NCBI GenBank assembly: GCA_016933575.1
Contig: JAFGAR010000081.1
Coordinates: 128,001 to 192,000 of the forward strand
DNA from: Candidatus Thorarchaeota archaeon
Lineage (GTDB): Archaea; Asgardarchaeota; Thorarchaeia; Thorarchaeales; Thorarchaeaceae
Length of the DNA: 64,000 nucleotides
Direction: 5' to 3'
The translations under genes and the position numbers were made by a program. The notes under the pieces are model-generated. The model saw only the letters and a list, made by a program, of their open reading frames with translations. It did not search any database and had not been told where the DNA came from. Within the stretch, counting starts at the first letter, position 1. Every line of letters begins with the position of its first letter. Positions 5,036 to 11,178 of the stretch are shown here, piece by piece.

Positions 5036-6049
5036 TCACTCTTCTAATACATCAATGATGTGCAAATTGCTACCTACTGCTTGCACAATCTCGTATCGAT
5101 TATCTCCATCTATATCCCCGGCGGCAACAATGGATTCCGTCGATTTCTTGGTTGTCTTGAGCGTGGTTTCCTCATTGATTCGATTTCCGATCAATGAGAG
5201 TATCGCAATTGTAGAGTTTGCATGACTCACAACCATCTGTCCCTGTTGATGGTCCAAATCCCAAAATTTACCCATTCTAATCGAGCTCACTGGACTTGGC
5301 GCTCGTATAGAATCTAGTTTTTCCATCGTACCTTTTACAAATCCGAATAGACTGAGTGTACGACCATCCGAGACAGTAAGTGTTTCATAATTCTCATCGT
5401 TGGTGATATCGCCTGTAGCTACTAGACCAACCTCACCACCAACACTGATCTTTGCTCGTTCATGTAGTCGATCATCTGCATATTGATAGATGTAAAAATA
5501 ACCCGAGTCATCTCCAAACACGAAACGACTGTACGGCATCCCCTTGGTCATCAGAGGTCGTATCGATAGTACGGGTCTCTCAAGTACCTTATGCGCGAGT
5601 TTATCGAGAGCAACATCATACCACCCATAACACCTCATACTACCATCACTGGTTGATACCACAACTTCAGAGCTCTCATCATCAAGGACGTTTAAGACTG
5701 CAATTGCTGTTGTTAGACTACCTAGAGGAGTTGATGCTTTGACACTAATACTATCATCCATGTACACAAATACGCGCAGGATGTTGTCAAGCCCCCCCAT
5801 TACAAAATCCGGTATACCATCGCCAGTCACATCTCCTATTCCGATGGCAGCTAATGGCGGGAGTCCTCCTATGTTACACCGCTCTTTGAGCGGTTTTTTA
5901 TCATCACGATTGAAATCATATACTCTTACATCGCCATTAAGCGTGGTAGTGATTATATTGGTCGTTCCATCTCTCTGTAGGTCCACAAGCTCGACAGATG
6001 TAATTGCTTCCTTGAAAGCAACTTTTGCAGCAATGTCTAGCTTAGTCAT
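5036..6049 (-). CDS. FG-GAP/VCBS-repeat beta-propeller without signal peptide
   Basis: Repeated GDxxGDGxxE/D blades (DLQRDG, GDVTGDGIPDF, GDITNDENYE, GDIDGDNRYEI). Confidence 0.8.
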   Translation of the reverse strand: MTKLDIAAKVAFKEAITSVELVDLQRDGTTNIITTTLNGDVRVYDFNRDDKKPLKERCNIGGLPPLAAIGIGDVTGDGIPDFVMGGLDNILRVFVYMDDSISVKASTPLGSLTTAIAVLNVLDDESSEVVVSTSDGSMRCYGWYDVALDKLAHKVLERPVLSIRPLMTKGMPYSRFVFGDDSGYFYIYQYADDRLHERAKISVGGEVGLVATGDITNDENYETLTVSDGRTLSLFGFVKGTMEKLDSIRAPSPVSSIRMGKFWDLDHQQGQMVVSHANSTIAILSLIGNRINEETTLKTTKKSTESIVAAGDIDGDNRYEIVQAVGSNLHIIDVLEE

Positions 6050-6791: not shown

Positions 6792-8300
6792 GTGATCGAC
6801 GAAATCAATGTTGAACATGTTCAACTCATTCGCTTGACTGGACTTAGAGAGGATCTTCTTCAAAATGCCCGTGTGGAGAATGGGACGTCTTGGAGTAATA
6901 TCTCTCAGACTATCAGTGAACATGAACGTATTATTTCAATGGGCGAAAGGCATAGTAGACAAAAAGCAATTCAAGATCCTGTTCATGGGGCGATTATTTT
7001 AGAACCCTGGGAACTCGACACGATTTCTACTTGGGAGATGCTCAGACTCAGATATGTAATGCAACTTGGCCCTGCTCACATAGTTTATCCTGGAGCCACG
7101 CATACACGCTTTCAACACTGTCTGGGAACTAACTTTCTTGCTCAGAAATCAATACGAGTTGTGAATTATTGCGAAGACCTTGATACAGCGTGTTTTGTCC
7201 CCTTCTCCGGTCTCCTTGATGATTATCAAAAGAAGCTATTCAGAGCTGCAGCATTACTTCATGATGTTGGTCATCCACCAACTTCTCACACAATAGAGTA
7301 CGCCCTAGAATCTTGGGCAAATCTTGACCACACAGACTTGGGCGAATTCCTGATTCTACATAGCGGTCTTACTGACGTACTCAAACAGAATGATATTGAA
7401 CCAATTGATGTTGTAAACATACTGAAGAAGCGTACGAAAGACCCGATTATGCTACTCTTGAATGAGTTTCTTGACCACCCCTTGGATATTGACAAGACCG
7501 ATTATCTCATCAGAGATGCGTATTTCAGTGGAGTCCAGCTCGGGGTCTTTCCCGCAGAACGTGTTTTACTTACCAATCGTGTAGTCCTCGATAAGAATGG
7601 GAAATATGTCCGTGCATTTATGTTGAAAGCCATCCATTCTCTGGAAGCCCTCATGTTAAGTCGGAATTGGATGTTCTCAGACCTCTATTTGCATCACGCA
7701 GTCAAACTGGCTGAGGCGCTCATTTCCAAAGCAACTTACTTCAGAATGGAAGAAGAATCTCTTACTAAGAATGAATGTATTGGATTCTTTACACGAATGA
7801 CAGACAGTGACCTATTTCGGTGGCTTTCAGATTCTGAAATTCCCTTTGTTAGGGAGTATATCTCACGAATAACATATCGACGACTCTTCAAAGTTGCTCT
7901 CTCACGACCCATTATCTCATTTGAGCCGGATGCTCAGAAAGAGATTCTCTCGATGAGAGATAATATCCAGCGGCTTCTCACTCTTGAGGATGAGTTGGCT
8001 GATAAGAGGGGGAGTGTTGTTGTAGATATTGTTATTCCAGAGTTAGGCGAGAAGCTCCTAAGCAAGATCCCACTCTTGATTGGTGGCGAACGGGGGTTCG
8101 ATCTTGTAGCGCTAAATGAACTCCAAGAGGGTCGCCCCCTATTGCAAACGCTGAAACAACAGACACATACAATTCCCTCAGTGCGAGTATATACTGACCC
8201 ATCTATTGCAAGTACTATTCGTAAGAAATTCGAAAAACGATTCCCATTAGCACATATGCCTGAGCATCGAGATGATGAATACGATTTGATTGAGTACTAA
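6792..8300 (+). CDS. HD-domain phosphohydrolase, SAMHD1/dNTP triphosphohydrolase family
   Basis: DPVHG, RLRYVMQLG..YPGATHTRFQHCLG, LLHDVGHPPTSH, DIDKTDYLIRD. Confidence 0.9.
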   Translation: MIDEINVEHVQLIRLTGLREDLLQNARVENGTSWSNISQTISEHERIISMGERHSRQKAIQDPVHGAIILEPWELDTISTWEMLRLRYVMQLGPAHIVYPGATHTRFQHCLGTNFLAQKSIRVVNYCEDLDTACFVPFSGLLDDYQKKLFRAAALLHDVGHPPTSHTIEYALESWANLDHTDLGEFLILHSGLTDVLKQNDIEPIDVVNILKKRTKDPIMLLLNEFLDHPLDIDKTDYLIRDAYFSGVQLGVFPAERVLLTNRVVLDKNGKYVRAFMLKAIHSLEALMLSRNWMFSDLYLHHAVKLAEALISKATYFRMEEESLTKNECIGFFTRMTDSDLFRWLSDSEIPFVREYISRITYRRLFKVALSRPIISFEPDAQKEILSMRDNIQRLLTLEDELADKRGSVVVDIVIPELGEKLLSKIPLLIGGERGFDLVALNELQEGRPLLQTLKQQTHTIPSVRVYTDPSIASTIRKKFEKRFPLAHMPEHRDDEYDLIEY

Positions 8301-8974
8301 AGCAAATGTTTGATACTCTCGCGAACCTTTGGAAATCCATACTCCATTTGGATTATTCCATAGATTGCCTCAATGAGGGTTCCTTTGTCATGTTCAATCT
8401 CTGACTTGCTTGGAGTCGCAGGGTCGAAATGTATCCTATGTTCATAGAGCTGCCATCGGTCGCAGAGGTCCGCCATATGCTGGTTACTGACAATCTCAGC
8501 TTTCTTCTGAGTCAACTGACCGACATCATCCAGATTATTCTGCCAGAGGCGGTATAGTACTCCCATTGAAATCGCTGCATCTCCAAGAAGTGCGAATACT
8601 TTGGCAATCTCACTGACCGATATCAGAGTTACAAACTCATCACTACTTAGAGGAACATCTTTCTCGTTTCGATATTGAATCTCTAGCTCCAAAAACAAGT
8701 TCTTAGTACTTGGTTGAAACATGGCAACTATGAGAAGTTCCTTATTTTTTATCTTGAAGCCGAGTGTTCTTTCAAGTTGTGGAGCAATTCGGTTCTTGAT
8801 ATAATCTGTCTTATCATGAATCTGGAGTATCTGTTCTTCCCATCGATTAAGCTTCTCTGCAAATCGAGTCTTGTTGAATGGATTCTCGTCTTTGGAATGA
8901 CGAATGATCTCTAGCAATTTATCTAACTTCTTCTCAATGTGAATTGGTTTCCATTCAAGGCTTTTCCGACTCAT
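8297..8974 (-). CDS. ribonuclease III domain protein (Mini-III-like, no dsRBD)
   Basis: LERTLGFKIKNKELL, FALLGDAA, GQLTQKKAEIVSN, GTLIEAIYG. Confidence 0.8.
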   Translation of the reverse strand: MSRKSLEWKPIHIEKKLDKLLEIIRHSKDENPFNKTRFAEKLNRWEEQILQIHDKTDYIKNRIAPQLERTLGFKIKNKELLIVAMFQPSTKNLFLELEIQYRNEKDVPLSSDEFVTLISVSEIAKVFALLGDAAISMGVLYRLWQNNLDDVGQLTQKKAEIVSNQHMADLCDRWQLYEHRIHFDPATPSKSEIEHDKGTLIEAIYGIIQMEYGFPKVRESIKHLL

Positions 8975-8987
8975 GATATCTCAACTC

Positions 8988-9770
8988 TCAATAGTAGCTG
9001 AGTTCAGCATTCGAAACATCATATCTAGTAACATGAAACGCAGTAATTGAATACTCTGTTGAAAGCTTAGCCATTGCAAGAGTAATCAACGACGGACCCA
9101 GAGTCAGGTCCATGACCATATCGTGGATGAATATGTTATCAATGATTGCTGCCTCCATAAAATCAACAGTCTGCTGTAAGTGACCGTATTCAGTTGCATC
9201 GTCTGTTCCTGTTACTTCATCAGGCACCTCAATCCACTCAGTAGTCCATCGTCTGAATGCATCATCGGGTATGAACCTATCAACAATTCTCGAAACACCT
9301 CTTGTCCAATGCCTTGCTTCTACAAAGACAAGCAATTTTCTTGGATTGAAATGAGGATTATTCGTCAACCACTGTACAAAGGGTCTTTGATCCTCAGGAC
9401 GGCTCAAAGAAGTAACATACAAAAGGGGTTTTGTTATCCCCAGAGCTCTACGCACCGGATGAATTGCTTTCGGTTCTAATTCAAATAGGCGGTATTGCGA
9501 TTGCTTCCAACTTACAATGATTCCAAGCTCCTCGAGTCTTGTAGTATTGTGATAGAGCTTGGGACTGGTAACCTCGACTTTCTCAATCTCTTTCTTACTT
9601 GCTCCTTCCACCATCTTCTGAGCCTTTATATCAGTGGCAATCTTCTCTCGCAGCTCTGCTCCCGTCTTCAATCCGCCTTCAAGTTGATCCAAGATAATCC
9701 TTCTCGCTCTTACTGTCTCTATCTCTTCCTTGACGAGTTCTTCAACAGTCTTGTTGAGCATTATAACCAT
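8988..9770 (-). CDS. winged-helix transcription regulator with C-terminal CARF-like Rossmann domain
   Basis: N-terminal wHTH (RRIILDQL..GLKTGAEL..KLYHNTTRLEELGII); C-terminal LLYVTSLS, NPRKLLVF and MVMDLTLGPSLITLAM resembling CARF motifs; start may be 9761. Confidence 0.65.
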   Translation of the reverse strand: MVIMLNKTVEELVKEEIETVRARRIILDQLEGGLKTGAELREKIATDIKAQKMVEGASKKEIEKVEVTSPKLYHNTTRLEELGIIVSWKQSQYRLFELEPKAIHPVRRALGITKPLLYVTSLSRPEDQRPFVQWLTNNPHFNPRKLLVFVEARHWTRGVSRIVDRFIPDDAFRRWTTEWIEVPDEVTGTDDATEYGHLQQTVDFMEAAIIDNIFIHDMVMDLTLGPSLITLAMAKLSTEYSITAFHVTRYDVSNAELSYY

Positions 9771-9924
9771 TCATCCGCGGATATATTAGCTAGTAATTAC
9801 AAGTACTAACCTTTTATACTTATCTAATATAATGTCGAATTAGAGCCTAAAAATGGTCCAAAAAGACGATACAATATACATTCCTAAGATACTTTTCGAA
9901 ATAATCGACACCCGTCCGACGAAC

Positions 9925-9933
9925 CCTTAAATA
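9925..9933 (+). promoter_or_regulatory. candidate TATA box of the actin gene
   Basis: CCTTAAATA about 105 nt upstream of the actin ATG; position only. Confidence 0.4.
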
Positions 9934-10038
9934 GAATTTGGCAGAAGCCTGTACTAGCAAGGAGCTTCAAAGCTCTGAACTGACGAATCTGAATTTCTGG
10001 ATTTGTCCAAAACTAAATTAAAAAACGAGGACCGAAAA

Positions 10039-11178
10039 ATGGCTGAAGACGAGTTTCTTGGCGCAAAGCCGATTGTCATTGACAACGGCACAGGTTTGAG
10101 CAAGAACGGATACGCCGGCGAAGATCAGCCACGAAGTGTCTGGCCTACCTTGATTGGCTACCCACGATACGAGTCAATCATGACTGATGTTGATCACTAC
10201 ACACGTGACTACTACATTGGTGAAGAGGCTATCAATCTACGTGGTGTCCTACGCCTGGTTTACCCGATCTCTCATGGAATCGTAGAAGACTGGGATGCAA
10301 TCGAGAAGATTTGGAGTTACACCTTCTATAACGACTTGAAGGTAGATCCCAGCGAGAACCCGGTGCTCCTCACTGAAGCACCATTCAACCCCAGAGAGAA
10401 CAGAGAACGCATGGCCTCCGTAATGTTTGACAACTTCGGAGTACCTGCAGTATACGTTGCCACACAGGCAGTACTGTCACTGTACGCATCTGGTCGAACA
10501 ACCGGTCTGGTCATCGACTCTGGTGACGGTGTGACCCACATAGTACCAATCTATGAGGGCTTCTCAATCAATCACGCTATCCGCAGAATTGACTTGGCTG
10601 GAAGAGACATCACTGAATACCTCCGCAGACTACTCAGGCAGAGAGGATACTCCTTCGTGAGTGGTGCAGAGAAAGAGATTGTCAGAGACATCAAAGAGAA
10701 GCTCTGTTATGTAGCTCTCGATCCCGAGAGGGAGCGAACAGTCGCTGACAAGGCTGGTGTCGACAAGCCCTACATGCTCCCTGATGGTGAAGTCATCACT
10801 GTCGGTGCAGAGCGATTCCAGGGTCCAGAGTTGTTCTTCAACCCAAGTGCAATTGGTCTTGACACAATGCCTCTCGATGAGCACATTGTCGAGTCAATCA
10901 AGGCTTGTGATGTCGACTTGCGACGTGACCTATACGCCAACATCGTATTGTCCGGTGGCTCAACCATGTTCCCAGGACTCAAGGAGAGACTCCACAAGGA
11001 GATCACCGAACTAGTCCCAGAGAACATCGAAGTCCGAATCATTGCTCCTCCAGAGAGACAGTACTCTGTCTGGATTGGTGGTAGCATTCTTGGCTCACTC
11101 AAGACATTCCAGAAGATGTGGGTGTCAAAGAAGGAGTTCGAAGAAGTCGGACCCGAAGTGATACACCGCTGTATCTAG
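10039..11178 (+). CDS. Asgard actin
   Basis: [76 protein letters not shown]; ATG 10039 follows GAGG RBS; strong C-ending codon bias. Confidence 0.98.

Follow-up and report, generated by a model that had tools for sequence, protein, structure and literature searches.

An actin-linked winged-helix CARF protein of Asgard archaea as a putative one-component regulator of actin transcription

The CARF domain is otherwise known from antiviral signaling by cyclic oligoadenylates (cOA); the superfamily is characterized by homodimers with a twofold composite pocket for a nucleotide-derived ligand. In Csa3 and Csa3a (PDB 6w11 and 6wxq), which belong to type I-A/III loci, a CARF sensor is followed by a winged-helix DNA binder. 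The CARF4-type proteins Can2, Card1, VC1899, and Cdn1—PD-D/ExK nucleases—bear a C-terminal nuclease and no N-terminal winged helix-turn-helix (wHTH) domain, and are cOA-activated defense effectors. RtcR, finally, is a bacterial, CARF-controlled transcription factor outside CRISPR loci that has an AAA+ sigma54-activator module and a C-terminal helix-turn-helix (HTH). Here, we describe a wHTH–CARF protein that is encoded back to back with actin in a 64,000-nucleotide stretch of a Candidatus Thorarchaeota genome (assembly GCA_016933575.1, contig JAFGAR010000081.1, positions 128,001–192,000), which we call the window and to whose numbering all plain coordinates refer. The pairing with actin recurs across ten families of Asgard archaea, and we consider it fairly probable that the protein is a one-component regulator—an ArsR-like wHTH joined to a CARF sensor—that acts on the region shared by both genes to set actin transcription.

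The initial annotation had placed the protein at 8988–9770. The corresponding minus-strand open reading frame (8988..9770, 260 aa) is present in the program-made list, but its first codons are probably not translated: nearly all of the 91 homologues found are 257–260 aa long and start at residue 4 of the 260-aa frame, and an A/T block 19–27 nt upstream of the corresponding ATG at 9761 is conserved in the same-genus alignment. Hence, the coding sequence probably spans 8988..9761 on the minus strand (257 aa, stop codon at 8988–8990). The protein drew nothing from Pfam (no match at E ≤ 1), NCBIfam, or a single-sequence search of the PDB, and in public records the family members are labeled "hypothetical," "ArsR/PadR family regulator," or "helix-turn-helix"—CARF is never named. 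Its sole PADLOC match is profile PDLC01987 "CARF_m5--CARF" (E 5.1e-22, 76.9 bits), which places residues 12–245 on profile positions 4–187 of 195. The same profile finds the Odin orthologue at E 2.3e-77, with orthologues from Odin, Frey, Atabey, and a further family (f2) spanning E 2e-77 to 1e-22; PADLOC CARF4 profiles are the usual second matches for family members, and CARF_m5 has no match in 14 control genomes. Since CARF_m5 matches almost the whole protein, the family is already catalogued: on this profile evidence, the regulator is a member of CARF_m5, a minor CARF family. PADLOC files the profile under defense-associated CARF proteins, whereas the window gene is a near-universal gene of its lineage beside actin; moreover, the family is found here mostly in genomes without detectable Cas10, and its Thorarchaeota clade lacks the basic residue of CARF motif II. 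What appears to be new is the setting—a catalogued CARF family in a non-defense, cytoskeleton-linked context. Our literature searches brought up no paper on a CARF or HTH regulator linked to actin and none that names CARF_m5.

An AlphaFold2 model of the regulator, built on 29 homologues, reaches pLDDT 87 and pTM 0.82. Residues 1–108 (9438..9761, minus strand) form an ArsR/SmtB/RosR-like wHTH domain in this model. VIA-align—run against ~48,000 chains and independently of Foldseek—yields Z ~10 to RosR, CzrA, SrnR, and Phr, and SmtB is matched as well, while Foldseek returns SqrR/SmtB. On the level of Pfam signatures (HTH_5/HTH_20), the window protein shows no HTH match, its orthologues show weak PadR/HTH_20 matches, and CRISPR-adjacent paralogues (see below) lie above the cut-off. 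The predicted recognition-helix region SPKLYHNTTRLEELG (9522..9566, minus strand) carries Y70 and N72, two residues without variation in the whole phylum. The charged insertion (9570..9629, minus strand) that the initial annotation had seen within an N-terminal wHTH separates helix 2 from the recognition helix; by alignment, it occurs in Thorarchaeota only and is absent from the other orthologues.

Residues 110–257 (8991..9434, minus strand) comprise a six-stranded Rossmann-like core with a β5–β6 hairpin, with strands assigned by DSSP at 113–119, 142–148, 173–179, 214–218, 240–244, and 254–256. The best VIA-align matches of this domain are VC1899 (Z 13.4, root-mean-square deviation (rmsd) 2.6 Å over 126 residues), Cdn1 (13.0), Csm6 (12.1), Can2 (12.0), and Csa3 (11.9), the alignments spanning ~120–133 residues at rmsd 2.6–2.9 Å. 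The top Foldseek matches of the domain are all CARF as well. For the Odinarchaeum orthologue, modeled at pLDDT 91.7, the Z scores are 14.9 (Can2), 14.6 (VC1899), 14.4 (Cdn1), and 10.7 (Csa3). When a phylum-wide family profile was compared with PDB sequences, the best match was the CARF domain of Cdn1 (E 3.9e-4), on whose NVTGGTKL the D-x-T-x-G-x-R block of the family aligns. Structure comparison, PDB profile, and PADLOC all point to CARF; as modeled, the C-terminal domain is a CARF fold, as its Rossmann-like appearance with CARF-like motifs had suggested. Two insertions within it (9183..9302, minus strand; RGVSRIVDRFIPDDAFRRW at 9246–9302 and TGTDDATEYG at 9183–9212) are specific to Thorarchaeota in the alignment, and this stretch is modeled with a lower pLDDT of 60–75.

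The closest structural relatives are the CARF4-type Can2/Card1/VC1899/Cdn1 group (Z 13.4–12.0 for the window protein, 14.9–13.0 for the Odin orthologue), from which the window protein, lacking any enzymatic domain, differs in architecture. Csa3, chosen as the reference by the initial annotation, is matched by the CARF domain but is not the nearest group. It is, however, built from the same blocks, with the same expected logic, and non-Thorarchaeota orthologues share its L-x2-G-h-R motif. Several features set the window protein apart from Csa3: the wHTH precedes the CARF domain instead of following it, the wHTH is ArsR/PadR-like rather than MarR-like, Pfam Csa3_N (PF22662) gives no match—whereas a true Csa3 in an Asgard type III locus (L069) is matched at E 4e-29—the gene is neither in nor beside a cas locus, and the equivalent of the cyclic tetra-adenylate (cA4)-contacting Arg is Ser. 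The reversed domain order was correctly recognized in the initial annotation, but it is a family trait rather than a peculiarity of this protein, since the CRISPR-adjacent Asgard paralogues share the HTH-first architecture. No sequence or structural match between RtcR and the window regulator was seen.

CARF domains have been defined by a Rossmann-like core of six strands, the last two pairing as a β-hairpin, by a Ser or Thr that ends strand 1, and by a basic residue that follows strand 4 in an "often associated" [DN]x[ST]xxx[RK] signature (PMC4012209). In motif 2 of Csa3a, L-x2-G-h-R, the main-chain amide of the Gly and the Arg contact the phosphates of cA4 (PMC8699464). The window protein bears motif I as LLYVTSLS (9402..9425, minus strand), where strand 1 ends in the polar Thr117-Ser118. 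The motif II region DLTLGPSLITLAM (9072..9110, minus strand) lies just after strand 4 and keeps the Asp, Thr, and Gly; yet it reads D218-L-T220-L-G222-P-S224 and, hence, departs from the signature by a Ser at position 7. Both motifs were quoted in the initial annotation, and both fall within the C-terminal blocks that are best conserved among 29 aligned sequences. Its remark on the missing basic residue holds for the window protein, though not for the family: the residue is replaced by Ser, Pro, Thr, or Gln in all Thorarchaeota members aligned, whereas most other orthologues keep DxTxGx[RK] in the cross-lineage alignment (DVTDGTR, DVTGGGK, DLTCGSR, DLSDGVR), with the canonical D-x-T-x-G-x-[RK] in Odin-, Frey-, Atabey-, and Baldrarchaeia. 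Such a loss is compatible with the CARF superfamily, because the signature is only "often associated" and because whole families, e.g., RtcR and Rv2818, are mostly devoid of this residue and may bind ligands other than cOA (PMC4012209).

Since the motif is kept in most Asgard lineages, the ancestral ligand was probably nucleotide-derived. From the sequences, the family would have begun with an ordinary nucleotide-type CARF pocket that was remodeled in Thorarchaeota—a clade that sits on a long stem branch of the family tree—and in this clade either the ligand probably changed or sensing was lost. Taken to its extreme, the latter would mean that the Thorarchaeota CARF domain senses nothing; the protein would then bind DNA constitutively or be an architectural factor, or the domain would serve dimerization only. 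The clade-wide loss of the basic residue, the gain of two insertions in the CARF domain, and the long stem branch agree with this idea. We nevertheless regard it as very improbable: Asp218, Thr/Ser220, and Gly222 of motif II are nearly invariant, P122, W176, G193, and Y237 are invariant in the Thorarchaeota alignment, and the RtcR and Rv2818 families likewise manage without the basic residue. The invariance of clade-specific residues suggests a pocket that is maintained and remodeled.

The argument for a role in actin expression comes from the gene neighborhood. In the window, the regulator is divergent from a lokiactin-type actin gene (10039..11178, plus strand; Pfam Actin E 8.8e-133, with 10039 as probable start), just as the initial annotation had stated. 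On its other side, 13 nt downstream, follows the gene of a 225-aa RNase III-domain protein (8297..8974, minus strand; Pfam Ribonuclease_3 E 3.9e-9), which is probably co-transcribed with the regulator. The order of actin, divergent regulator, RNase III-domain gene, and convergent SAMHD1-like HD gene is found in 30 of 30 loci of the window's family, and the 13-nt gap is kept in every one of these. Synteny on this level could simply be inherited, and therefore weak homologues from other families were compared: in 15 of their 18 loci, at regulator identities of 21–28%, actin lies divergently upstream of the regulator. A survey of the phylum, in which the coordinates of regulator and actin matches were compared in 201 Asgard genomes from 27 sampled families, locates a full-length regulator gene in 11 families and the divergent pair with actin in 10 of these 11—among them Thorarchaeota, Odinarchaeum yellowstonii LCB_4, Freyarchaeum/Jordarchaeia, Atabeyarchaeum, and Baldrarchaeia. 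Neither the RNase III-domain gene nor the HD gene adjoins the regulator in the loci inspected from these other families, where the downstream flank varies among lineages. Actin is the sole conserved partner of the regulator, a pattern classically seen when a regulator and its target share a divergent control region. The suggestion that the protein may control the actin promoter is, hence, strongly reinforced, while it stays a conclusion drawn from gene order.

This shared region spans 277 bp in the window (9762..10038) and 246–287 bp within the genus. On the regulator side, the A/T block GATATATTA (plus-strand letters; 9780..9788, acting on the minus strand) is present in 14 of 14 aligned same-genus loci and is a candidate TATA box of the regulator; it lies so close to the start codon that a near-leaderless regulator mRNA is predicted. 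On the actin side, a candidate TATA box CTTAAATA (9926..9933, plus strand) precedes the actin ATG by ~105–113 nt and is common to 13–16 of 23 diverse intergenic regions, above every shuffle. Between these elements, 15 of 15 loci of the genus have two copies of a 12-mer, ATACTT[AT]TCGAA, in the same orientation and at a spacing of 73 or 83 bp, each copy upstream of one of the two TATA-like elements. Box 1 (9816..9827, plus strand) has one mismatch in this genome, whereas box 2 (9889..9900, plus strand) is exact and lies ~30 nt upstream of the candidate actin TATA box. The exact 12-mer has only two occurrences in the 3.47-Mb assembly, and from their sequence and placement the boxes are a reasonable candidate operator. 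The actin leader is predicted to be ~80 nt long; before the ATG stands a conserved Shine–Dalgarno-like block ACGAGGACCGA (10025..10035, plus strand) that is invariant within the genus. Near the predicted 5' end of the leader lies a small hairpin (9961..9976, plus strand) of 6–7 bp with compensatory changes within the genus (GGAGCUU/AAGCUCC, AGAGUC/GACUCU, AAGGUC/GACUUU); it could be a stabilizing element or a target of the co-encoded RNase III-domain protein. Across lineages, the actin TATA box and the ribosome-binding site account for all shared k-mers. Only 113–118 bp separate the start codons of regulator and actin in Atabeyarchaeia, and anything bound there therefore touches both promoters.

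In the mechanism that we favor, the protein would act as a one-component transcription factor whose N-terminal ArsR-like winged helix binds DNA and whose C-terminal CARF domain senses. A dimer would bind the short intergenic region shared with the actin gene and would set the transcription of actin and of the regulator itself—in Thorarchaeota also of the co-transcribed RNase III-domain gene—and the state of the CARF pocket would modulate this output. DNA binding at the actin promoter, dimerization, the direction of regulation, and any ligand are what we infer here, with control of the actin promoter resting on the deep conservation of the gene pair.

A number of observations weigh against this mechanism. 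Of the 27 sampled families, 16 yielded no full-length gene, among them the two with the largest samples, f9 (40 genomes) and f5 (21 genomes), and therefore actin is expressed without this regulator in much of the phylum; in these families, no homologue was detected upstream of actin with the family hidden Markov model even at E ≤ 10, and the neighbors of actin differ. In the sole gene-bearing family without the pair (f7), regulator and actin are located on separate contigs, and the regulator follows housekeeping genes. The 12-mer is absent from other genera, so that the candidate operator is kept within one genus only, and despite a near-invariant recognition helix no cross-lineage operator was found in the diverse intergenic regions; outside the genus, internal 9-mer repeats are not clearly above shuffles. 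In the Thorarchaeota clade, the key phosphate-contacting residue is missing, and the "sensor" may be vestigial. Finally, Csa3a bound its predicted promoter nonspecifically in vitro (PMC8699464), and, therefore, proximity to a promoter is no guarantee of specific control.

The lack of a cross-lineage operator near the actin promoter would also suit a protein that regulates only itself, or only its own small operon with the Thorarchaeota RNase III-domain gene, the adjacency to actin then being an inherited order of no regulatory meaning. Many wHTH regulators are autoregulatory, and the invariant 13-nt gap to the RNase III-domain gene points in the same direction. However, this partner is absent beside the regulator outside Thorarchaeota and the flank varies, while the pairing with actin persists through ten families at 21–28% identity; moreover, with intergenic spans as short as those of Atabeyarchaeia, autoregulatory binding would overlap the actin promoter anyway. 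Hence, we judge such purely autoregulatory function to be unlikely and retain control of the actin gene as the more probable role.

The presence of a CARF domain raises the question of its relation to CRISPR-Cas. The regulator does not depend on Cas10: in the window's own genus, it is found in 14 of 14 genomes searched and Cas10 in none, and the counts for regulator and Cas10 are 42/43 and 8/43 in f1, 12/19 and 0/19 in f12, and 3/3 and 0/3 in f13, where two of the genomes are closed. The occurrence of Cas10 is patchy and bears no relation to that of the regulator. The window locus itself lies away from CRISPR, as the initial annotation had remarked, its neighbors being actin, the RNase III-domain gene, and the SAMHD1-like HD protein; the assembly as a whole, however, does carry cas genes, and those found all lie on contig C76. 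There, a type III module (L067:2758-16624) comprises genes for an 831-aa Cas10, whose GGDD motif at residue 588 is intact, for five RAMPs, for Cas6, and for a metallo-β-lactamase/RMMBL nuclease, together with those for two CARF proteins—a Can2/Card1-type CARF4 nuclease (L067:2758-3894) and a Csa3-like CARF3 protein (L067:13760-14476). Because of this GGDD Cas10, cOA might be made in this organism, though assembly contamination is 6.9% and C76 could be a binning contaminant.

A few kb from Cas10 genes, Asgard type III loci also hold paralogues of 214–224 aa in which the wHTH likewise precedes the CARF domain (L045:5569-6210(+), L068:7784-8455(+), L069:4389-5054(-), and L070:10278-10946(-)); one of them and an HD-Cas10 gene are transcribed divergently. 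Both the family profile (E 1e-13 to 1e-26) and CARF_m5 recognize these paralogues, and their ArsR-type HTH lies above the Pfam cut-off. By sequence, the actin-linked and CRISPR-linked forms are related, and the latter are candidate cOA-responsive regulators of type III loci. The family tree gives no order of origin for the two forms, as its backbone lacks resolution and long branches meet.

It could therefore be asked if the actin-linked regulator is itself a cOA receptor of type III signaling, which during virus infection would couple cOA to actin transcription and bring about an infection-triggered change of the cytoskeleton. The Cas10-adjacent paralogues, the Csa3-like L-x2-G-h-R motif in non-Thorarchaeota orthologues, whose Csa3a counterpart contacts cA4 phosphates (PMC8699464), and the GGDD Cas10 on C76 would fit such a role. 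On the contrary, the regulator occurs almost universally in groups in which Cas10 is patchy or was not found, the window protein lacks the basic residue, and the C76 module—which might not belong to this genome at all—comes with its own conventional receptors. Taken together, we regard a cOA receptor as quite unlikely. The main members of the family are core genes in genomes without detectable Cas10, which implies a non-CRISPR source of CARF ligands or a different class of ligands. As a more tentative extension of our proposal, possible although doubtful at present, the actin-linked regulator might be a dedicated, ligand-gated switch that tunes expression of the eukaryote-like Asgard actin, whose CARF domain would be one that reads an endogenous nucleotide-derived messenger made independently of CRISPR-Cas and whose pocket would have been re-tuned to a different ligand in Thorarchaeota.

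Ideas on the origin of the eukaryotic cell draw centrally on Asgard actin and its eukaryote-like partners, and to our knowledge the control of Asgard cytoskeleton genes has not been described. A regulator that is head-to-head with actin in ten Asgard families offers a concrete, clonable entry point; a thermophile, Odinarchaeum LCB_4, provides one of the orthologues (WEU40861.1). For dissecting CARF specificity, the orthologues that have a canonical Arg/Lys pocket and those with the remodeled Thorarchaeota pocket form a natural pair. If a ligand-gated switch does exist, it would be the first regulatory input to become known for the actin cytoskeleton of an archaeon, and it would give the CARF domain its first housekeeping role in archaea.

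Some further features of these loci deserve mention. RNase III is uncommon in archaea; the RNase III-domain protein of the window (8297-8974, minus strand) has an N-terminal extension, no double-stranded RNA-binding domain, and no PDB sequence match. Its gene is convergent, with a 4-nt overlap, with that of the SAMHD1-like HD protein (6792-8300, plus strand; HD and HD_assoc_2), which matches SAMHD1 at E ~1e-20 and 2hek at 4.5e-32 and is kept in most Thorarchaeota loci. A description of regulator, RNase III-domain gene, and HD gene as a "defense island" was considered and rejected, since the block is syntenic in one family only and the last two genes are absent beside the orthologues elsewhere. 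Farther along, 5036-6049 (minus strand) encodes a 337-aa FG-GAP β-propeller with weak, sub-threshold Pfam matches (E 1e-6 to 5e-5) to the eukaryotic propellers of BBS7, BBS2, and ITFG2.

The actin genes themselves show two further peculiarities. In f5, which lacks the regulator, actin has a conserved divergent neighbor of ~855–1055 aa (L051:408-3536(-), L057:384-3551(-), L060:304-3450(-), and L065:852-3419(-)). In five other Thorarchaeota genomes, actin carries a 30-nt insertion with an in-frame stop after nt 1075 (codon 359), downstream of which the frame is conserved (L071:138-167(-), L072:1143-1172(+), L073:124-153(-), and L074:128-157(-), also in genome G164); the window's own actin is without it. 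This insert folds as a bulge–helix–bulge with a 4-bp helix CCAG/CUGG, 3-nt bulges, and an inner stem with compensatory changes. Cuts in the bulges would remove exactly 30 nt, which makes the insert a candidate archaeal-type mini-intron in a protein-coding mRNA.

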